Source: Escherichia phage vB_EcoM_PhAPEC2. Taken from it: a stretch of DNA of 64,000 nt. Both the position numbers and the translations under genes were made by a program. The DNA lies in the sequence record NC_024794.1. One strand, given 5' to 3'. The notes beneath the pieces were generated by a model. That model was not told the origin of the DNA. It was given only the letters and a program-made list of their open reading frames with translations, and did no database searches. Shown piece by piece: positions 45,447 to 55,967 of this stretch (position 1 is its first letter; each line of letters opens with the position of its first letter).

Positions 45447-45454
45447 TATAAATA
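45447..45454 (+). promoter_or_regulatory. Late promoter TATAAATA upstream of gene 34
   Basis: Exact TATAAATA 35 nt upstream of gene 34 ATG. Confidence 0.7.
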
Positions 45455-45488: not shown

Positions 45489-48400
45489 ATGGTTGACATC
45501 AAACGTAAGTTCAGGGCCGAAGATGGTCTTGACGCAGGCGGTGATAAGATAGTTAACGTTGCGCTTGCTGACCGCACAGTTGGCACCGATGGCGTGAACG
45601 TTGACTTTTTGGTGCAAGAAAACACCGTACAGAATTATGACGATACGCGCGCGTATACAAAAGATTTTATTGTTCTTTATGATAATCGTTTTTATCAAGC
45701 TTTAAGTGATATTCCAGCTCCGGCAGGCCCTTTCTCTTTGGCTAAATGGAAGGCAACTCGTACAGATGCAGAATGGATTACAGTTCAAGGCGGAGATTTC
45801 CAATTATCAGTAGGTAACTCTATTGCGGTTGATACTTCAGCTGGCACTGATATTAATTTCACTTTGCCTCAAAATCCTTTAGATGGCGATACAGTTATTT
45901 TGTCTGATATTGGCGGTAGAGTAGGCTATGTAAAAGTTCAAATTACTGCAGCGGCTCAAAGTATTGTAGACTTTAGAGGACAACAGGTTCGTTCAGTTTT
46001 AATGACGCACCCAAAATCTAAAATGGTCTTCATTTTTAGCAACCGCCTATGGCAAATGTATGTTTCCGATTACGAACGTAATGCAGTCACAGTAACTCCT
46101 GCCACGCCATATCAAGCGCAACCTAATGATTTTATCATTCGACGTTTTACATCAGCCGCTCCTATTAATATTACATTGCCTCGTAATGCTAATAATGGCG
46201 ATATTATTAATTTAGTGGATTTAGACAAATTAAACCCATTATATCACACAATTGTCAAAACTTACGATGAAACAACTTCTATACGAGAAGCTGGTGTTCA
46301 TGTAGCAGAAGGACGTAATACTGCGGAAGCATTCTTTGTTTATGATTCTGCCAATAGTTTATGGCGTGTTTGGGAAGGTGACCAGAAATCTCGTTTACGT
46401 ATAGTTCGTAATGATACTGATTTACGCCCTAATGAAGAAGTTCTTGTTTTTGGAACTAATAATGATACAATCTCGACGGTAAATCTTACTTTGCCTACAG
46501 ATATTTTGTCTGGCGATACTGTTAAAATATCGTTGAATTATATGCGTAAAGGGCAAACTGTAAAAATTAAAGCTGCTGAAGGCGATACAATTGCTAGCAG
46601 TATTTCTTTATTACAGTTCCCAAAACGTTCGGAGTATCCACCTGATGCACAATGGGTTTCTGTTAGTGAGCTGGAATTTAATGGTGATACTTCGTATGTA
46701 CCTGTACTTGAGTTAGCTTATATAGAAGATTATTCATCTGAAACAAAATATTGGGTAGTTCAACAAAACACCGTAACCGTTGAACGAGTCGATGCATCGA
46801 GCAATACAACTCGAGCTCGTTTAGGTGTTATTGCTCTTGCTTCTCAAGCGCAAGCAAATGTTGATTTAGAAAATGCTCCTGGTAAAGAACTGGCTATTAC
46901 TCCGGAAACATTAGCAAATCGTACAGCAACTGAAACTCGTCGTGGTATTGCTCGTATTGCAACAACTGCACAAGTTAACCAGAATACCGATTTTGCATTC
47001 CAAGACGACTTGATTATTTCTCCTAAGAAATTGAACGAACGTACAGCAACTGAAACCCGTAGAGGTGTTGCTGAAGTTGCAACTCAGGCTGAAACTAATG
47101 CTGGAACAGATGACACCACTATTATTACTCCTAAGAAATTGGATGCCCGTCAAGGTTCTGAAGTTTTATCTGGTATTGTAAAATACACATCTACGACTGG
47201 TACTACAGCTGCTACTATTCGTGGTAATGCTGGGACTAATGTTTATAACAAAGCCGTAGATAATTTAACTATTTCTCCAAAGGCCCTTGACCAATATAAA
47301 GCTACCCCTACTCAGCAGGGTGCAGTAATTCTTGCTATTGAAAGTGAAGTTATCGCCGGCGAATCACAAGCCGGTTGGGCTAATGCTGTAGTGACCCCTG
47401 AAACTCTGCATAAGAAAACTTCTACTGATGGACGTATTGGTTTAATTGAAATTGCTACGCAAGCAGAAACTAATGATGGGACCGATTATACACGTGCAGT
47501 AACGCCTAAGACATTAAATGATAGGAGAGCGACGGAAGGATTATCCGGCATAGCCGAAATTGCTACGCAAGTTGAATTTGATACTGGAACTGATGATACT
47601 CGTATCTCGACTCCACTGAAAATTAAAACTCATTTTGATTCTTCTGACCGTACCAGTGTTAATTCTGATTCCGGACTTATTGAAGAAGGAACCTTGTGGA
47701 ACCATTATACTCTTGATATTTCTAAAGCAAATGAAACACAACGTGGTACACTTCGCGTAGCGACCCAGGCAGAATCTAATGCAGGAACTTTAGATGATGT
47801 TCTTATTACTCCTAAAAAGCTTTTAGGGACTAAGTCCACTGAAACGTCTGAAGGCGTAATTAAGGTTGCTACTCAGGCTGAAACTGTAACAGGAACTTCT
47901 GCTAATACTGCTGTATCACCTAAGAATTTAAAATGGATTGTTCAATCAGAACCATCATGGACTGCTACTACGGCAATTCGTGGATTCGTTAAAACTTCAT
48001 CTGGTTCTATTACATTTGTTGGTAATGATACAGTTGGTTCAACACAATCTTTAGAATCATATGAGAAAAATAGCTATGCGGTATCACCATATGAATTAAA
48101 CCGTGTACTTGCTAACTACTTACCGTTGAAAGCTAAAGCAGCTGATAGTAATTTGTTAGATGGTCTAGATTCTCTTCAGTTCATCCGTAGAGACATCGAC
48201 CAGACGGTTAATGGTTCTTTAAGTCTTACTAAACAGACCAACCTGAGTGCTCCTTTAGTATCTACAAGCACTGCTTCTTTTGGTTCCGAAGCATCTGTTA
48301 CTCGTAGATTAACTCTTAATGACTCTAGCGGTTCCGAAATAGTTTTCACTAAAGGAACCCAATCTCTTAGTAATAAAGAGAATTTCGTTGTTAGAGCATG

Positions 48401-49322
48401 GGGTAATAGCGCTACAGATGGTGCCCGTGATACAGTATTTGAAGCGGGTGATGAAACCGGATACCATTTCTATTCTCAGCGCGCTGCTGATAATAGAGTA
48501 TCATTTAATATTAATGGAACACTTTATTCAACAGGTATTGTTTCTACAAATGGATTAAATGTTACAGGTGTTTCTACCTTTACAGGGCCTATTAGTGCTA
48601 CAGGCGAAATTGTTTCTAGTTCTCCTATTGCATTCAGAGCTATTAACGGTAACTACGGTGTTATGCTTTATAACGCTGGTAACAGTTCTTATATTGCATT
48701 AACTAACTCAGGTGACCAGACCGGGACGTTTAATAACTTACGCCCGATCACGATTAACAACGCAACAGGCTTAGTTCGTCTTGACAATGGTGTTCAAATC
48801 ACAAGTGGTGCAACAATAACTACCGGTGGGTTAACTGTAAATAACAGAATTATTTCTAACGGCGTTAAAACTGCCACTGTTTATACCGATAAACCAACAG
48901 CTTCTACTGTAGGTTTTTGGTCTATTGACATTAACGATTCTGCTGTATATAGCCAATTCCCTGGATACTGGACGCGTGATAACAAAGGTAACCGTGACCA
49001 AGAAATTAAATATCCTGGTACTTTGACTCAATTCGGTAATAGCTTAGATTCACTTTATCAGGATTGGATTTGTTATCCTACAGGTGCAAATGGTGGTAGC
49101 ATTCGATATACTCGTACCTGGCAGAAAAATAAAGATGCTTGGACTTCATTTGCAATGGTATTTGATAGTGGCAACCCACCTTCACCTAGCGATGTCGGTG
49201 CTATCCCATCTGATAATGCTGTTATTGGAAACCTTACTATTCGAGACTTCTTACAATTAGGAAATGTGAGAATTGTTCCAGACCCGGTTAACAAAACAGT
49301 TAAATTTATATGGGTTGAATAA
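45489..49322 (+). CDS. 34: Long tail fibre proximal subunit gp34
   Basis: 1277 aa; internal ~40-aa repeats (TPKKL...ATE...GIA.IATQAE.N); late promoter at 45447. Confidence 0.9.
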   Translation: MVDIKRKFRAEDGLDAGGDKIVNVALADRTVGTDGVNVDFLVQENTVQNYDDTRAYTKDFIVLYDNRFYQALSDIPAPAGPFSLAKWKATRTDAEWITVQGGDFQLSVGNSIAVDTSAGTDINFTLPQNPLDGDTVILSDIGGRVGYVKVQITAAAQSIVDFRGQQVRSVLMTHPKSKMVFIFSNRLWQMYVSDYERNAVTVTPATPYQAQPNDFIIRRFTSAAPINITLPRNANNGDIINLVDLDKLNPLYHTIVKTYDETTSIREAGVHVAEGRNTAEAFFVYDSANSLWRVWEGDQKSRLRIVRNDTDLRPNEEVLVFGTNNDTISTVNLTLPTDILSGDTVKISLNYMRKGQTVKIKAAEGDTIASSISLLQFPKRSEYPPDAQWVSVSELEFNGDTSYVPVLELAYIEDYSSETKYWVVQQNTVTVERVDASSNTTRARLGVIALASQAQANVDLENAPGKELAITPETLANRTATETRRGIARIATTAQVNQNTDFAFQDDLIISPKKLNERTATETRRGVAEVATQAETNAGTDDTTIITPKKLDARQGSEVLSGIVKYTSTTGTTAATIRGNAGTNVYNKAVDNLTISPKALDQYKATPTQQGAVILAIESEVIAGESQAGWANAVVTPETLHKKTSTDGRIGLIEIATQAETNDGTDYTRAVTPKTLNDRRATEGLSGIAEIATQVEFDTGTDDTRISTPLKIKTHFDSSDRTSVNSDSGLIEEGTLWNHYTLDISKANETQRGTLRVATQAESNAGTLDDVLITPKKLLGTKSTETSEGVIKVATQAETVTGTSANTAVSPKNLKWIVQSEPSWTATTAIRGFVKTSSGSITFVGNDTVGSTQSLESYEKNSYAVSPYELNRVLANYLPLKAKAADSNLLDGLDSLQFIRRDIDQTVNGSLSLTKQTNLSAPLVSTSTASFGSEASVTRRLTLNDSSGSEIVFTKGTQSLSNKENFVVRAWGNSATDGARDTVFEAGDETGYHFYSQRAADNRVSFNINGTLYSTGIVSTNGLNVTGVSTFTGPISATGEIVSSSPIAFRAINGNYGVMLYNAGNSSYIALTNSGDQTGTFNNLRPITINNATGLVRLDNGVQITSGATITTGGLTVNNRIISNGVKTATVYTDKPTASTVGFWSIDINDSAVYSQFPGYWTRDNKGNRDQEIKYPGTLTQFGNSLDSLYQDWICYPTGANGGSIRYTRTWQKNKDAWTSFAMVFDSGNPPSPSDVGAIPSDNAVIGNLTIRDFLQLGNVRIVPDPVNKTVKFIWVE

Positions 49323-49330
49323 GAGGTTAT

Positions 49331-50455
49331 ATGGAAAAATTTATGGCAAGGTTTGGACAGGGATACGTCCAAACGCCGTTTTTATCGGAAAGCAATTCAG
49401 TTAGATTTAAGCTAAGTATAGCGGGTTCATGCCCGCTTTCAACAACTAATCCGTATATTTTGTTCCAAAACGAGCCTTTAGGGTTGCAGTCTTTTGGTAT
49501 TGGACTAAATGTTAGGGTGATAAATCCGGAAAATGGAACTATAGTTGATAGTAAATTATACAATTTTGCGCCTACAAATAATGCAACTTCAGCTGCATTT
49601 ATTTCGTTTGTTAATACATACGCAGATAATTTCATTTTCGCATTTATTTCTAATAACAAATTTAATTTGCCACCGGAAATAATTGAATGGTTTAAAGCTG
49701 CTGGGAGTTCAGTTATACCGTCAATTGAAGTTGCTAGTCTTGTTGATATTTCATATTCAGCGTTTTATGTTTCAGGTAAAAATACTATTGCATTAGAACA
49801 CATAAAATACAGTAATAAGAAAACAATTTCTGATTACGCAACTCCATTAGATATTGTATATGACTCTATTGCTGATATAGGTGCTACCGGCTATCCTAGA
49901 CGTACATATGAAGCTCTAGAAACGTTTTTATCTCCTGTTGGAGGAACTAACAATGAAATAAAAAGGATGCCTACGTCATCCCTTGTTACTCCTATCGCAA
50001 ACTATGGATTAAAGCCTACAGATTTTCTTTATTTGAAATTTCAATTAATGGCTGATGAAGAATTATTAGAGGAAGGAACCACAAGACTTTCAATTCGTTT
50101 CTTTAAGTCTCCATCTAGCTCTCCTATATCATCTAAAGATATAAACTTTGATGGAACTGCCGGGGAGTGGAAGCTATATGAAGAATACGTTGAAATACCA
50201 GCTGAAGCTGATGGCTTTACAGTATATTGTTACCGTACGGCCTCAGTCGGTCAAGGTGGACTAAGAAATGTTATTTTCACTGAAGTATCATGTAACGGAA
50301 GTATAGCAAAACCCGCTGAGTTTGGTATAAATGGTATTCGTGTTAATTATATTGATGAATCGTTAACCGGTAATGATATAATGGACTTGCCTACTCAGTT
50401 ATCTAACGACACAGGTAAGGTATTTGGGCAGGAATTTAAAGAGTACACAGAATAA
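49331..50455 (+). CDS. 35: Long tail fibre hinge protein gp35
   Basis: 374 aa; synteny 34-35-36-37; tetraloop terminator downstream. Confidence 0.85.
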   Translation: MEKFMARFGQGYVQTPFLSESNSVRFKLSIAGSCPLSTTNPYILFQNEPLGLQSFGIGLNVRVINPENGTIVDSKLYNFAPTNNATSAAFISFVNTYADNFIFAFISNNKFNLPPEIIEWFKAAGSSVIPSIEVASLVDISYSAFYVSGKNTIALEHIKYSNKKTISDYATPLDIVYDSIADIGATGYPRRTYEALETFLSPVGGTNNEIKRMPTSSLVTPIANYGLKPTDFLYLKFQLMADEELLEEGTTRLSIRFFKSPSSSPISSKDINFDGTAGEWKLYEEYVEIPAEADGFTVYCYRTASVGQGGLRNVIFTEVSCNGSIAKPAEFGINGIRVNYIDESLTGNDIMDLPTQLSNDTGKVFGQEFKEYTE

Positions 50456-50456
50456 A

Positions 50457-50478
50457 GGAGACTTCGGTCTCCTTTTCG
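50457..50478 (+). terminator. Terminator after gene 35
   Basis: GGAGAC-TTCG-GTCTCC followed by TTTTCG. Confidence 0.7.
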
Positions 50479-50480
50479 CG

Positions 50481-50488
50481 TATAAATA
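50481..50488 (+). promoter_or_regulatory. Late promoter TATAAATA upstream of gene 36
   Basis: Exact TATAAATA 27 nt upstream of gene 36 ATG, after the gene 35 terminator. Confidence 0.7.
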
Positions 50489-50514
50489 CTTTAATATTAA
50501 TAAGGAGACACGAA

Positions 50515-51171
50515 ATGGCCGATTTAAAAGCCGGAAGTACAGTTGGTGGTTCCGTCATATGGCATCAAGGCAATTTTCCTTTAATGCCAGCTGGCGATGA
50601 CATCCTATATAAAACATTTAAATTATACACCGAATATAACAAGCCAAAAGCGGCTGATAACGATTTCGTATCTAAAGCAAATGGTGGGGCATATCTCAAA
50701 AAGGTAATCTTTAACGAAGGTATTGCAGTCAAAACAGCAGATGACCAAACGAATGGTATTTTTTCTGGTGGTGGTGACGCCGCGACATTCGACCAAACAA
50801 ACATGGATATTGTTTCGTGGTATGGTGTTGGGTTTAAATCATCTCAAGGTACAGGTGAAAGAACTGTTGTAATTGATACTCGCACCGGTAATATAAGTTC
50901 TAAAGGTGTTATTGAAGCATCTCAATTCAGAGCCACAACGTTAGCACCTTTAAATAATTACGACCTTACTCGCAAAGATTATGTTGATAGTCAAATAAAT
51001 ACAGTTAATGCTAATGCAAACAGTCGTGTACTCCTTTCAGGAGATACGATGACCGGGGCGCTAACCGCCCCAAACTTTTTCTCACAGAATCCTGCATCTC
51101 AACCCTCGCATGTTCCACGATTTGACCAAATTGTTATTAAGGATTCTGTTCAAGATTTCGGCTATTATTAA
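50515..51171 (+). CDS. 36: Long tail fibre distal subunit connector gp36
   Basis: 218 aa; late promoter at 50481. Confidence 0.85.
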   Translation: MADLKAGSTVGGSVIWHQGNFPLMPAGDDILYKTFKLYTEYNKPKAADNDFVSKANGGAYLKKVIFNEGIAVKTADDQTNGIFSGGGDAATFDQTNMDIVSWYGVGFKSSQGTGERTVVIDTRTGNISSKGVIEASQFRATTLAPLNNYDLTRKDYVDSQINTVNANANSRVLLSGDTMTGALTAPNFFSQNPASQPSHVPRFDQIVIKDSVQDFGYY

Positions 51172-51179
51172 GAGGACTT

Positions 51180-54100
51180 ATGGCTACTTTAAAACAAATA
51201 CAATTTAAAAGAAGCAAAACTGCAGGAGCACGTCCTGCCGCTTCAGTATTAGCCGAAGGTGAATTGGCTATAAACTTAAAAGACCGTGTACTTTTTACTA
51301 AAGATGACCAAGGAAATATTATTGATCTGGGTTTTGCTAAAGGCGGTAGTATTGACGGGAATGTTATTCATACAGGCAATTATAACCAAACTGGCGATTA
51401 TACTTTAAATGGCACCTTCACTCAGACAGGTAATTTTAATTTAACCGGTATTGCTCGAGTAACTCGTGATATTATTGCCGCTGGGCAGATTATGACTGAA
51501 GGCGGAGAACTTATTACAAAAAGTTCAGGTACAGCGCATGTTCGTTTTTTCGATGGCAATAGTCGCGAACGTGGAATCATTTATGCCCCGGCTAATGATG
51601 GATTAACTACACAAGTACTTAATATCAGGGTTCAAGACTACGCCGCTGGTAGCGAAAGCACTTATGCATTTTCAGGCAGTGGCCTATTTACTTCACCTGA
51701 AGTATCAGCATGGAAATCTATGTCAACTCCTCAGATTTTGACTGACAAAGTCATTACAGACGGGAAGAAGACAGGCGATTATGATATCTATTCATTATCA
51801 AATAACACTCCAATGGCAGAAGGCGAAACGGCTATTAACCACCTCCGTGTTATGCGAAATGCTGTAGGAGCAGGTATTTTCCACGAAGTTAATGTTAATG
51901 ACGGAATAACCTGGTATTCCGGAGATGGACTTGACACTTATCTTTGGTCGTTTAACTGGGCCGGTGGATTGAAAGCCGGTCATTCTATTTCTGTAGGTCT
52001 TCCAGGTGGCCCCAAAGGATATTCTGAATTAGGAACGGCCTCAATTGTTCTTGGGGATAATGATACCGGGCTAAAATGGCATCAGGACGGATATTTCTAT
52101 ACAGTAAACAACGGAACAAAAACTTTCATCTATGGTCCAGGAGAAACGCAAAGCCTTAGAAAAATGGTTATGGCTTATTCTCCAGATGGGCTTCTTATGA
52201 CAACGCCGCCGACAGAAAACTATGCTTTGGCTACTGTTGTTACTTACCATGATAATAATGCGTATGGTGACGGTCAAACTCTTTTAGGATATTATCAAGG
52301 CGGTAACTATCATCATTATTTCCGCGGCAAGGGTACCACAAACATTAATACTCATGGCGGTTTGTTAGTTACTCCAGGTAATATTGATGTTATTGGCGGT
52401 TCTGTTAATATAGATGGTAGAAATAATTCTTCTACACTAATGTTTAGAGGCAACACAACAGGATACAGCTCGGTTGATAATATGGATATTAAAGTTTGGG
52501 GTAATACGTTTGTTGATCCAAGCGGAGGTATCCGTAAAAACATTATGGAAATTTCTGATGCAACTAGCTGGATGAGCTATATTCAAAGACTTACTACTGG
52601 CGAAGTAGAAATGAACGTTAATGGTTCATTTGAATCATCTGGTGTTACTGCTGGAGATAGAGGAGTTCACACAACAGGTGAAATTTCATCTGGAGCAGTG
52701 AATGCTCTTCGTATTTGGAACGCAGATTATGGAGCCATTTTTAGACGTTCAGAAGGAAGTCTTCATATTATTCCAACTGCTTATGGCGAAGGCAAAGATG
52801 GCGATATCGGTCCACTTCGCCCGTTTAGTATGGCTTTAGATACCGGTAAAGTTACTATTCCAGATTTACAATCAAGTTACAATACGTTCGCTGCGAACGG
52901 CTATATTAAATTTGTTGGCCATGGTGCAGGCGCAGGTGGATATGATATTCAATATGCCCAAGCGGCTCCTATTTTCCAAGAAATTGATGATGCTGAGGTA
53001 AGCAAATATTATCCTATTGTTAAGCAGAAATTTTTACAAGGAAAAGCAGTTTGGTCTTTAGGTACTGAAATTAATTCAGGTACATTCGTGATACACCATA
53101 TCAAAGAAGACGGGACTCAAGCTCATACATCAAGATTTAATGCTGACGGTACAGTTAATTTCCCTGATAATGTTCAGGTTGGTGGCGGTGAAGCTACTAT
53201 TGCTCGAAATGGTAATATCTTCTCCAACATTTGGAACGTATTTACCTCTGCTGGTGATATAACCAACATTCATGATGCCATTGCCTCCCGTGTGGCTAAA
53301 GAAGGCGACACGATGACAGGTAAGTTGAGTATTAATGCCCCAGACGATGCTTTAGTATTAAATGCTCCTAGTGCAACTAACTCATCTCATATTCGTTCGA
53401 CTGTCGCTGGAGCAAATAGCTGGTTCATAGGTAAAGGTGGAGTGTCAGACACCGTATCTTTTTATAACTATAAGTCCCAGACAGGTATAGATATATCAGC
53501 AGAAGGTAATATTTCATTTAACCCACAATCGGGTAACCTGGTCAGCATGAGCCAGAACCGTATGTATGTTAACGGCGAAAGATGGGTGGCCACAAACCAA
53601 GGTGCAATTAATGTGCAATACGGCGTTGAAGCTCCAGTATTTGTTAACTTAGGCGAGTTAAATGGTAACGTATACTATCCATTGATAAAGGGTCGAAGCT
53701 CTTCCACCGGATATGGTTACCTAAGTAGTGTTGAGCTTGGCCAATTACGTACAGGTGACAATAACTGGGGTATTGGTTGTATAATTGTTCGCTCGGCTGA
53801 AAATACACCAGAACAAGGACATCCGGCAGCAGTATACCAGTTTGACGCTAGAGGTAACTTTAGTGCTCCAGCCGGGGTTTATTCGAACGTTAATATGGGC
53901 ATTGGCACTATTCCTGTATGGGGTGGTCCATCTCTTGCAATCGGTGACAATGATACTGGATTTGTATGGGAAGCAGACGGTATTTTCAACGCATATGCAA
54001 ACGGCCAAGGTGTGTTTAGTTTTAGACCTGGTTTAGCTCAGACATTCGGTAATGTTAACTTCCACTGTAATGCAGGTATGTATGTTCGTGATAACATTGA

Positions 54101-54443
54101 TGTTAACGACGTTTATATTCGTTCTGATATTCGTTGTAAGTCGGAAATTAAGCTTATTAAGAACGCTCAAGAGAAATCTAAACTATTGGGCGGTTATACT
54201 TATCTGCTTAAAAACTCTGTTACAGACGAAGTTAAACCGTCCGCAGGTTTAATTGCTCAGGAAGTTCAAGAAGTATTACCTGAACTTGTTTCTGAAGATA
54301 AAGAGACCGGACTGCTTCGTTTGAACTATAACGGTATTATCGGTTTAAATACTGCTACTATCAACGAGCATACTGACGAAATCAAGGAATTGAAATCTGA
54401 AATTGCTGAATTGAAAGCATTAATTAAATCATTGATAAAATAA
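51180..54443 (+). CDS. 37: Long tail fibre distal subunit gp37 with C-terminal intramolecular chaperone-like domain
   Basis: 1087 aa; C-terminal ~110 aa (YIRSDIRCKSEIK ... LIAQEVQEVLPELV ... coiled coil) resembles the autoproteolytic chaperone domain of fibre/tailspike proteins. Confidence 0.9.
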   Translation: MATLKQIQFKRSKTAGARPAASVLAEGELAINLKDRVLFTKDDQGNIIDLGFAKGGSIDGNVIHTGNYNQTGDYTLNGTFTQTGNFNLTGIARVTRDIIAAGQIMTEGGELITKSSGTAHVRFFDGNSRERGIIYAPANDGLTTQVLNIRVQDYAAGSESTYAFSGSGLFTSPEVSAWKSMSTPQILTDKVITDGKKTGDYDIYSLSNNTPMAEGETAINHLRVMRNAVGAGIFHEVNVNDGITWYSGDGLDTYLWSFNWAGGLKAGHSISVGLPGGPKGYSELGTASIVLGDNDTGLKWHQDGYFYTVNNGTKTFIYGPGETQSLRKMVMAYSPDGLLMTTPPTENYALATVVTYHDNNAYGDGQTLLGYYQGGNYHHYFRGKGTTNINTHGGLLVTPGNIDVIGGSVNIDGRNNSSTLMFRGNTTGYSSVDNMDIKVWGNTFVDPSGGIRKNIMEISDATSWMSYIQRLTTGEVEMNVNGSFESSGVTAGDRGVHTTGEISSGAVNALRIWNADYGAIFRRSEGSLHIIPTAYGEGKDGDIGPLRPFSMALDTGKVTIPDLQSSYNTFAANGYIKFVGHGAGAGGYDIQYAQAAPIFQEIDDAEVSKYYPIVKQKFLQGKAVWSLGTEINSGTFVIHHIKEDGTQAHTSRFNADGTVNFPDNVQVGGGEATIARNGNIFSNIWNVFTSAGDITNIHDAIASRVAKEGDTMTGKLSINAPDDALVLNAPSATNSSHIRSTVAGANSWFIGKGGVSDTVSFYNYKSQTGIDISAEGNISFNPQSGNLVSMSQNRMYVNGERWVATNQGAINVQYGVEAPVFVNLGELNGNVYYPLIKGRSSSTGYGYLSSVELGQLRTGDNNWGIGCIIVRSAENTPEQGHPAAVYQFDARGNFSAPAGVYSNVNMGIGTIPVWGGPSLAIGDNDTGFVWEADGIFNAYANGQGVFSFRPGLAQTFGNVNFHCNAGMYVRDNIDVNDVYIRSDIRCKSEIKLIKNAQEKSKLLGGYTYLLKNSVTDEVKPSAGLIAQEVQEVLPELVSEDKETGLLRLNYNGIIGLNTATINEHTDEIKELKSEIAELKALIKSLIK

Positions 54444-54448
54444 TAAAA

Positions 54449-54462
54449 GGGCCTTCGGGCCC
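54449..54462 (+). other. Intercistronic UUCG hairpin between genes 37 and 38 (no U-tract)
   Basis: GGGCC-TTCG-GGCCC immediately followed by GGAGG SD of gene 38. Confidence 0.5.
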
Positions 54463-54473
54463 TGGAGGTTTAT

Positions 54474-55262
54474 ATGGCAGTAGTAGGAATCCCTGGTTGG
54501 ATTGGGACCTCAGCCGTTGCTGAAACGGGTCAAAGATGGATGACGGCTGCTTCAAGGGAACTTCGTTTAGGAAACCCTTCATGGATGTCCCAATTCGCGG
54601 GCCGTTCAAGAGAAATAATTCATACACTCGGTGCAGACCATAACTTTAACGGACAATGGTTCCGTGACCGTTGCTTTGAAGCTGGCGGCGCTCCTATAGT
54701 GTTTAATATCACTGGAGATTTAGTATCATATTCTAAAGATGTTCCATTGTTCTTTATGTACGGTGATACTCCTAATGAATATGTTACTTTGAATATTCAT
54801 GGTGGTGTTCATATGTGGGGACGTGGCGGTAATGGCGGGACCCGTGTTTGGGTAGCAGGTACAAATGGGGGCGATGTAATTCAAAACGACATTGGAGGCA
54901 GACTCCGTATTTGGAACTATGGTGTTATAGCTTCAGGTGGTGGCGGCGGCGCCGGATGTGCTTCAAATAACTCTTGGGTTGCAGCGGGTACGGCAGGCGG
55001 CGGTGGTGGCAGACCATTTGGATTAGGCGGTACTAATGGCGCAGTAATGCCAGGTGGCGACGCTAGTTATACCAGCCCTGGTGGTGGCGGTAGCTTTGCC
55101 GGTCAGTGGGGCGGCGGCGGTGGCGGTGATGCTGGTGGTGGCGGTGGTGGCGCTTACGGTCGAAACGTTACATACGGCTCGCCGGGCGCTGCTGGCAGAG
55201 CAGTATTCGGAAGTTCACCGACATGGGGTGCTACAGGCACAATCTACGGCTCCTGGATTTAA
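54474..55262 (+). CDS. 38: Tail fibre adhesin gp38, glycine-rich (T2-type)
   Basis: 262 aa; several poly-Gly motifs ([28 protein letters not shown]) separated by variable segments; GGAGG SD. Confidence 0.85.
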
Positions 55263-55280
55263 ACGATAATACCTCTCAAT

Positions 55281-55288
55281 TATAAATA
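55281..55288 (+). promoter_or_regulatory. Late promoter TATAAATA upstream of holin t
   Basis: Exact TATAAATA 20 nt upstream of t ATG. Confidence 0.7.
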
Positions 55289-55307
55289 TTGATAAATGGG
55301 AGGTAAT

Positions 55308-55967
55308 ATGGCAGCACCAAAAGTATCATTTTCGCCTAGTGATATTTTATTTGGGTTGCTAGACCGCATTTTCAAAGATAACGCCACTGGAAATATTCTT
55401 ATTTCAAGAGTTGCTGTTGTAGTTCTTTTGTTCCTAATGGCACTAATATGGTACAAAGGGAATATTTTTATGGATTATTACGTGAGGTCGAAATATGATA
55501 CTTACACAGAAGTAATTCAAAAAGAAAGAAATACACGATTTGAATCTGCGGCTTTAGAACAACTACAAATAGTCCACGTCACATCAAGGGCGGATTTTAG
55601 TTCGGTGTATTCTTTCAGACCTAAAAATCTAAATTATTTCGTCGACCTTATTGCGTATGAAGGTAAGTTACCTAGCACAGTAACTGAAAAATCTATGGGA
55701 GGATTTCCTGTTGATAAAACGACAGCAGAATATTCGGTCCATTTAAGTGGACTTCACTTTACTTCTAAAACAGATTTTGCTTTCTTACCTACCAAATCAA
55801 AAACTCCGGAACTGGCGTATATGTATAGTTGTCCTTACTTCAATTTGGATAACATATATGCGGGAACTGTTTCTATGTATTGGTATAAGGGGTCGGATGT
55901 GTTAAATGAAGAACGCTTGGCTGCAATATGCAACCAAGCAGCAAGGATATTAGGGCGGGCTAAATAA
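55308..55967 (+). CDS. t: Holin T
   Basis: Start at MAAPKVSFSPSDILFG with GGGAGG SD; single N-terminal TM helix and large periplasmic domain; matches T4 T as recalled; late promoter at 55281. Confidence 0.9.
   Translation: MAAPKVSFSPSDILFGLLDRIFKDNATGNILISRVAVVVLLFLMALIWYKGNIFMDYYVRSKYDTYTEVIQKERNTRFESAALEQLQIVHVTSRADFSSVYSFRPKNLNYFVDLIAYEGKLPSTVTEKSMGGFPVDKTTAEYSVHLSGLHFTSKTDFAFLPTKSKTPELAYMYSCPYFNLDNIYAGTVSMYWYKGSDVLNEERLAAICNQAARILGRAK

Follow-up and report, generated by a model that had tools for sequence, protein, structure and literature searches.

The locus of genes 37 and 38 in Escherichia phage vB_EcoM_PhAPEC2 (PhAPEC2) raises the question of whether the tip of its long tail fiber is built as in T4 or as in T2 and T6, and which of the two gene products meets the receptor. 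The PhAPEC2 genome measures 167,318 bp, and the phage represents the species Mosigvirus phapec2 as its type (species name according to the AlbertHofmann record). We analyzed a stretch of 64,000 nucleotides from record NC_024794.1, referred to here as the window, whose coordinates are used throughout. Both open reading frames were found on the + strand exactly where the initial annotation had placed them. Gene 37 (51180-54443) encodes the long tail fiber distal subunit gp37 as a precursor of 1,087 residues (116.7 kDa), and gene 38 (54474-55262) encodes gp38, the putative monomeric tail-fiber tip adhesin (262 residues, 26.3 kDa). The translations are identical in amino acid sequence to the deposited PhAPEC2 proteins (gp37, AHV82943.1 / YP_009056826.1; gp38, AHV82944.1 / YP_009056827.1). 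The locus very probably encodes a standard long-tail-fiber tip of the T2/T6/S16 type as found in Mosigvirus, with a self-processing gp37, a gp38 that acts as the adhesin, and an exchanged cassette of receptor loops. The direct evidence consists of the domain identities, an intact catalytic dyad, the mapping of the loops, a recombination map, and the cause of a local GC-rich island.

gp37 matched PHROG 1699 over residues 1-1085 (expectation value [E], 0), and residues 982-1037 of its 1,087 matched the Pfam family Peptidase_S74 (PF13884; E, 8.5e-12; 45.6 bits against a cut-off of 22). A C-terminal chaperone module of the self-cleaving type had been proposed from two motifs and a heptad-like tail, and all of these elements were recovered. 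The motifs YIRSDIRCKSEIK and LIAQEVQEVLPELV both lie within the S74 match, and in the tail (residues 1051-1087) isoleucine or leucine occupies 8 of the 10 a/d positions in the best register. This heptad tail is conserved in S16 gp37. The intramolecular chaperone domain as a whole spans residues 982-1087 (54123-54440, + strand). When the last 128 residues were compared with solved structures, the only matches to the S74 region were S16 gp37 (6F45_A; E, 6e-24) and, weakly, the ICA domain of MYRF (7DC3; E, 0.023). The S74 domain is also present in gp37 of T2, T6, and JS98 but absent from T4 gp37.

The putative catalytic dyad of this domain is intact. Its motif, SDIRCK (Ser982, 54123-54125; Lys987, 54138-54140), conforms to the pattern SDxRxK, which is found in T2, T6, JS98, and S16 and is invariant in the eight gp37 C termini aligned, Bp7 and LHE83 among them. 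The residues show the i, i+5 spacing of the Ser-Lys dyad of S74 chaperones. In the MYRF chain 7DC3, ADLRAK aligns with SDIRCK, with alanine at the position of Ser982 and lysine at that of Lys987; the alanine in the crystallized chain is presumably a mutated nucleophile. Because the motif is intact and invariant and aligns with S16 and 7DC3, cleavage is predicted between Arg981 and Ser982 (site and dyad, 54123-54140, + strand). Such a cut would give a mature chain of 105.0 kDa and release a fragment of 106 residues (11.8 kDa). The part left after cleavage would end in the distal tip, residues 914-981 (53919-54122, + strand), which aligned with the S16 gp37 tip in 6F45_A (E, 2.2e-30) and which, from descriptions of the S16 complex, we infer to be the docking site of gp38. 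The module resembles S74 chaperones of the endosialidase K1F type and the MYRF ICA domain in its dyad and in its C-terminal position followed by a helical coiled coil, but in PhAPEC2 it is carried on a T-even fiber shaft, not on an endosialidase or tailspike.

The S74 domain might instead be degenerate, with gp37 left uncleaved and its C-terminal coiled coil staying on the fiber. The moderate Pfam score would fit this, as would the fact that cleavage is a prediction. However, the dyad and the motif surrounding it are intact and invariant among homologues, and the DNA of the domain is 100% identical to that of ST2 and 93 to 100% identical to that of other Mosigvirus genomes, indicating strong constraint. 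An uncleaved chaperone would also occupy the docking site of the gp38 N-terminal domain, judging from the published descriptions of 6F45. In addition, C-terminal processing of T2 gp37 is said to have been shown biochemically by Drexler and coworkers in 1986. We consider a degenerate domain very unlikely.

Two further features of gp37 were observed. Residues 453-550 (52536-52829) matched the Pfam domain Gp34_trimer and solved gp34 structures (E, ~1e-12), a type of module common to the proximal and distal half-fiber proteins. The motif GDNDTG(L/F)xW..DG occurs twice, in the mid-shaft at residue 292 (52053-52070) and in the docking tip at residue 922 (53943-53960); S16, JS98, and T2 all retain the tip copy.

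gp38 belongs to the adhesin family of T2 and T6, as the initial annotation had held. Residues 47-262 matched Pfam GP38 (PF05268) over profile positions 1-218 of 218 (E, 1.3e-79; 267.6 bits against a cut-off of 25), residues 1-42 matched Gp38_N (PF21721; E, 8.1e-21; 74.2 bits against a cut-off of 25), and the protein matched PHROG 2056 (E, 1.3e-106). It also aligned with two crystal structures, the receptor-binding domain of PP01 gp38 (9V85; E, 7e-77) and S16 gp38 (6F45_D; E, 3e-48), in gap-poor alignments that cover all of the glycine-rich motifs. The Pfam matches of gp38 and the S74 match of gp37 are far beyond chance. The several poly-glycine motifs noted earlier in this 262-residue protein correspond to runs at residues 155-159, 175-179, 203-206, 213-218, and 221-226; glycine makes up 68 of the 262 residues and 36% of residues 115-262. 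An alignment with T2, T6, and related proteins, which had been suggested as a check, was run and showed five conserved glycine-rich motifs with variable segments between them. The GRGG, GGGGG, GGGGGRP, and GG.GG blocks and the P.W..G.I.G tail were invariant among T2, T6, S16, PP01, AlbertHofmann, and LHE83. The deposited Bp7 gp38 (HQ829472, 3391-4182) reads like a frameshift after about residue 225, with a C terminus (...EDGIITYLD...LLVIIRKY) that lacks the conserved tail; all other Gp38 proteins keep this tail.

On the + strand, gene 38 encodes an N-terminal attachment domain of the Gp38_N type, predicted to bind the gp37 tip (residues 1-42; 54474-54599), a linker and beta-helix domain aligned to 9V85 and 6F45_D (residues 43-117; 54600-54824), a putative PGII (poly-glycine-II) sandwich domain with the five glycine-rich motifs and the hypervariable loops (residues 118-237; 54825-55184; GC content, 0.59), and the conserved C-terminal tail (residues 238-262; 55185-55259). 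A fold composed of a beta-helix and a three-layer poly-glycine-II sandwich is strongly implied by the homology. The loops of PP01 gp38, named A to E, and their contact with OmpC have been described (PMC12892980). By alignment with PP01, the predicted receptor loops of PhAPEC2 gp38, all on the + strand, are loop A, GTRVWV, at residues 122-127 (54837-54854; from PP01 W119-I124); loop B at residues 164-173 (54963-54992; from Q161-V170); loop C, TNGAVM, at residues 187-192 (55032-55049; from N184-W189); loop D, SFAGQW, at residues 207-212 (55092-55109; from N204-Y209); and loop E, YGRNVT, at residues 228-233 (55155-55172; from N225-S231).

The same protein could be read as an assembly chaperone of the T4 type, missing from the virion, with gp37 itself binding the receptor. 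Gene 38 lies where T4 has its own gene 38, and the GenBank names of PhAPEC2 gp38 and many of its homologues contain "assembly catalyst" or "chaperone." However, a BLASTP comparison with T4 gp38 (183 residues) gave an E value of 2.3 over eight aligned residues, and T4 gp38, an unrelated chaperone, matches no Pfam family. On this comparison the T4-type reading, which the initial annotation had named as its own refutation, was rejected. Over its full length, gp38 belongs to the adhesin family, and its homologues with crystal structures bind OmpC (PMC12892980). PhAPEC2 gp37 also lacks the receptor-binding C terminus of T4. The two shafts occupy the same gene position and are homologous proximally (35% identity, residues 1-640 only), but similarity stops at about residue 640, and the T4 tip, with its Collar and Phage_fiber domains and without S74, has no counterpart in PhAPEC2. 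The T4 RefSeq note itself calls gp38 of the T2 subfamily the unrelated adhesin. In GenBank, PhAPEC2 gp38 bears the product name "distal long tail fiber assembly catalyst," an inherited annotation that is misleading as to function; RefSeq and UniProt name a host-specificity or receptor-recognizing protein. A chaperone role for gp38 is extremely unlikely.

Compared with known systems, PhAPEC2 shares with T2 and T6 the gene order, the C-terminal S74 domain of gp37, the combination of Gp38_N and GP38 domains, and a gp38 with five glycine-rich motifs and four hypervariable segments. It differs from these phages, which belong to Tequatrovirus and not to Mosigvirus, in the length of gp37 (1,341 residues in T2 and 994 in T6 versus 1,087) and in gp38, where identity is 48 to 50% in the receptor-binding domain and 12 to 22% in the loops. 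The S16 gp37-gp38 complex (6F45) serves as structural template for the attachment domain, the beta-helix, and the poly-glycine-II sandwich; similarity extends over the gp37 tip and chaperone (E, 2e-30) and over gp38 from end to end, but only 45% of the receptor-binding domain and 6% of the loop residues are identical, and the S16 receptor is Salmonella OmpC. PP01 gp38, which binds OmpC of Escherichia coli O157, is the best structural homologue and has the same loop A-E architecture. Its loops are 19% identical to those of PhAPEC2, and loops D and E, which determine specificity, are wholly different (NTGTGY and NPGAGYS in PP01).

The receptor-binding part of gene 38 coincides with a GC-rich island, as reported in the initial annotation: 200-nucleotide windows reach a GC content of 0.55 to 0.64 at 54800-55300, compared to 0.38 for the whole window. 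This island is attributable to protein composition, namely, glycine and alanine codons. Among the 148 codons for residues 115-262, 54 are glycine codons (GGN) and 16 are alanine codons, the next commonest; the GC content is 0.59 overall and 0.45 in the nonglycine codons, whose third-position GC content of 0.35 is close to the local background of 0.28 to 0.32. An origin of the island outside the T-even gene pool, in an organism of high GC content, is extremely unlikely and was rejected on this background-level third-position GC content, even though the GC content reaches 0.64 against 0.38 and the cassette has truly been exchanged horizontally, since the glycine-rich motifs are common to all gp38 receptor-binding domains compared, including T2, T6, and S16, and every DNA relative of the cassette is a T-even-type phage. 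Within the receptor-binding domain (54816-55259), GGC accounts for 46% of the glycine codons (25/54) versus 24% in gp37, a shift that may keep long runs of G, or repeats, in check. An alternate-frame open reading frame at 55054-55269 is an artifact of the GC-rich stretch.

The initial annotation had also described a mosaic tail-fiber tip of T2 type in an otherwise T4-like genome. The mosaicism stood, although it is finer than was proposed and lies within genes; the notion of a T4 genome with a grafted T2 tip did not. The backbone is that of the genus Mosigvirus (RB69/PhAPEC2 group) on the basis of DNA identity, which was 95 to 97% between Mosigvirus genomes (Shf125875, phiC120, ST2, and AlbertHofmann) and the 20- to 40-kb part of the window, with Shf125875, phiC120, and ST2 at 96 to 97%. 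T4, T2, and T6 were about 68 to 73% identical to the locus where alignable. ST2 was 98.9% similar to PhAPEC2 in a published comparison (PMC9404725). The ST2 record (OM982647) carries the taxonomy line Guernseyvirinae/Kagunavirus, yet its genome is that of a 171-kb Mosigvirus-type phage. The order of an S74-bearing gene 37 followed by gene 38 and the holin gene t is also found in T2, T6, JS98, ST2, AlbertHofmann, and Shf125875. Since all relatives examined share the arrangement, it is the default of the genus and not a graft; the gp38-adhesin arrangement is normal, and T4 is the exception.

The mosaic was mapped by sliding identity and informative sites against ST2, AlbertHofmann, Shf125875, JS98, and TH40. 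Its junctions fall inside genes 37 and 38 (~54700-54824 and ~55181-55193), not at gene boundaries. From the end of gene 34 through genes 35 and 36 to the start of gene 37 (48700-51400), the window is 99 to 100% identical to all three Mosigvirus relatives. Over the gp37 shaft (51400-54000) it is about 100% identical to ST2 only, with AlbertHofmann and Shf125875 at 43 to 80% over much of it. The region of the gp37 tip, the chaperone domain, and the gp38 N terminus (53950-54550) is conserved among Mosigvirus. ST2, the nearest relative, has a nearly identical gp37 and remains about 100% identical in DNA up to ~54640, including the gp38 N-terminal domain (100%), but it is only about 45% identical across 54800-55260. 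In the gp38 transition zone (54689-54810), informative sites are mixed and pass from Mosigvirus type to JS98 type; residues 118-237 of gp38, with all of the hypervariable segments (54824-55180), carry JS98-type sites; and from 55193 onward, in the gp38 tail and downstream genes, 57 consecutive informative sites are of the Mosigvirus type. AlbertHofmann and Shf125875 are 99 to 100% identical from ~55225 (to 57500). JS98 and TH40 are ~86 to 92% identical in DNA across the cassette. By its informative sites, the cassette (~54825-55184) is an exchangeable module of JS98/TH40 type between Mosigvirus flanks (~99 to 100%).

Close relatives of PhAPEC2 carry other cassettes. That of ST2 is T6-like, with T6-like loops, and that of AlbertHofmann is RB69-like, so that with the JS98-type cassette of PhAPEC2 there are three different cassettes among close relatives. 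Only 9 of 50,697 phage records contain the PhAPEC2 cassette at ≥90% identity. Backbones of Dhakavirus (JS98) and Gaprivervirus (TH40, MN01, TH44, and vB_EcoM_RZ) also bear this receptor-binding domain, which in MN01 and P8 follows an N-terminal attachment domain of another kind. The cassette has been transferred among no fewer than three genera (Mosigvirus, Dhakavirus, and Gaprivervirus). The gp38 proteins of JS98, TH40, MN01, TH44, vB_EcoM_RZ, vB_YenM_P8, and EAWsc9 are 90 to 91% identical to that of PhAPEC2 in the receptor-binding domain and 82 to 88% identical in the loops, and they fall into the same 90% protein cluster, one member of which is 97% identical in protein sequence. In contrast, the backbones of this group are only ~60 to 80% identical in DNA outside the cassette. 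JS98 gp38 differs from PhAPEC2 gp38 at 16 amino acids, several of them in loops, and JS98 is not the donor itself. Synonymous divergence (dS) from JS98 was 0.49 in the cassette compared to 1.23 in the almost identical N-terminal part, with a ratio of nonsynonymous to synonymous divergence (dN/dS) of 0.1, which fits a cassette ancestry more recent than that of the flanks, under purifying selection. Modularity of Gp38 and shuffling at its glycine-rich motifs have been published (Trojet et al. 2011; PMC3157838, PMC12032242), and the PhAPEC2 cassette matches this pattern.

Gene 37 is itself a fine-grained mosaic with JS98 and TH40 patches. At 51775-52000, JS98 (Dhakavirus) is 97 to 98% identical, whereas Mosigvirus genomes other than ST2 are at ~58 to 77%; at 52750-52975, TH40 (Gaprivervirus) is 90 to 95% identical and Mosigvirus genomes other than ST2 are comparable (89 to 95%). 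The shaft segment of residues 691-927 (53250-53960) is a rare module, matched by ST2 only (99.9%), with the next best at ~73% among the 50,697 phage records. A patch of ~90 nucleotides in the coiled-coil tail (54320-54410) is 0.97 to 0.98 identical to JS98 and TH40 versus 0.87 to 0.88 to ST2, and it explains two of the three amino acid differences between the gp37 proteins of PhAPEC2 and ST2 (T1060A and A1076T).

The receptor of PhAPEC2 gp38 is most likely an outer-membrane beta-barrel protein, by analogy with the Gp38 proteins that have an assigned receptor. The set compared comprised T2 (FadL), T6 (Tsx), AlbertHofmann (OmpF; PMC8594841), PP01 (OmpC), S16 (OmpC), LHE83 (OmpA), and Bp7 (LamB/OmpC; PMC10987938). 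Identity over the five loops was ≤22% to every member of this set, compared to 82 to 88% within the JS98-type group. A literature search covering JS98, Dhakavirus, Gaprivervirus, vB_YenM_P8, vB_EcoM_RZ, MN01, EAWsc9, and PhAPEC2 found no receptor report for a phage with a JS98-type Gp38. The JS98/PhAPEC2-type loops might recognize a receptor, or a combination of porin loops, other than Tsx, OmpA, OmpF, OmpC, FadL, and LamB. The low loop identity, the occurrence in only 9 of 50,697 records, and the spread over at least three genera lend this idea some support, but we regard it as rather doubtful. If it were true, these loops would constitute a distinct and rare specificity class.

Taken in order, the proposed assembly would begin with late transcription of genes 36, 37, and 38. 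gp37 would trimerize with the aid of its own C-terminal S74 chaperone, which would then remove itself by a Ser982/Lys987-catalyzed cut at Arg981-Ser982, the fragment leaving and residues 914-981 becoming exposed as the tip. One gp38 monomer would dock there through its N-terminal domain (residues 1-42), and its glycine-rich motifs would pack as a poly-glycine-II sandwich that displays the five loops. By touching the extracellular loops of their receptor, an outer-membrane protein, these loops would set the host range. The cassette would have been acquired by homologous recombination in the conserved sequence flanking the hypervariable region.

Several points weigh against this account of a self-processing gp37, a gp38 adhesin, and an exchanged cassette. 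The cleavage of gp37, the presence of gp38 in the virion, its docking, and receptor binding are all inferred from homologues. An AlphaFold2 model of gp38 built from a shallow alignment (13 cluster-member sequences) had a mean predicted local distance difference test score (pLDDT) of 25.7 and was unusable, so the poly-glycine sandwich fold rests on homology to the two crystal structures. The closest relatives of the cassette are only ~86 to 90% identical in DNA (dS, 0.49), and the exchange was not recent. Mosigvirus-type sites are interspersed in the cassette, indicating that the junctions are zones rather than points. Finally, the first three hypervariable segments of AlbertHofmann and Bp7 are nearly identical in our alignment, yet different receptors have been reported for these phages, OmpF and LamB/OmpC, respectively (PMC8594841; PMC10987938), and prediction of the receptor from similarity is therefore unreliable here.

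The tail-fiber block lies on the + strand in the T4 gene order 34-35-36-37-38-t, with gene 34 at 45489-49322, gene 35 at 49331-50455, gene 36 at 50515-51171, and the holin gene t from 55296 or 55308. An exact T4-type late promoter motif, TATAAATA, lies at 50481-50488 on the + strand, 5' of gene 36, and further copies lie at 45447, 5' of gene 34, and at 55281, 5' of gene t. The whole window contains 14 copies compared to 7.9 expected, and those on the + strand are the ones immediately 5' of genes 34, 36, and t. Because of these positions, genes 36, 37, and 38 probably form one late transcription unit, and from what is known of T4 late promoters, the motif at 50481 is the probable start of their transcript. 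Scans for sigma-70 promoters and terminators found no more than chance levels, and no tRNA genes or Rfam families were found within the 64-kb window.

An intercistronic hairpin, AGGGCC-UUCG-GGCCCU (54448-54463, + strand), lies between genes 37 and 38, directly followed by the ribosome-binding site of gene 38, GGAGG (54464-54468, + strand). Its folding energy is -12.3 kcal/mol, not distinguishable from shuffled sequence (z-score, -1.06), and it is a possible mRNA stability element. Another GC-rich hairpin with a UUCG tetraloop lies in the gap after gene 35 (50454-50475). Both resemble the C(UUCG)G hairpins of T4 intercistronic regions. For the holin gene, the listed ATG is at 55296, but the late promoter motif at 55281-55288 and a GGAGG at 55299-55303 favor the ATG at 55308, from which the protein would have 219 residues, the length annotated in ST2 and AlbertHofmann. 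This gene is 73 to 87% identical between ST2 and the window, and 99 to 100% identical in AlbertHofmann and Shf125875. In gp35, residues 58-131 (49502-49723) matched the Pfam family ILEI (interleukin-like EMT inducer, PF15711; E, 6.5e-7; 30.2 bits against a cut-off of 27).

The locus of genes 37 and 38 was already published and annotated, and it is an ordinary, well-characterized Mosigvirus receptor-binding tip. Little is added to basic biology, as the architecture, structure, and modular evolution are textbook knowledge for T-even phages and the genome is public. Phages of the PhAPEC2 type find use against avian pathogenic E. coli, and a modest practical value remains. The cassettes of close relatives differ, with the T6-like one of ST2 and the OmpF type of AlbertHofmann as alternatives, and the proposed host-range cassette of ~360 bp (54825-55184) therefore eases host-range engineering and the design of phage cocktails.

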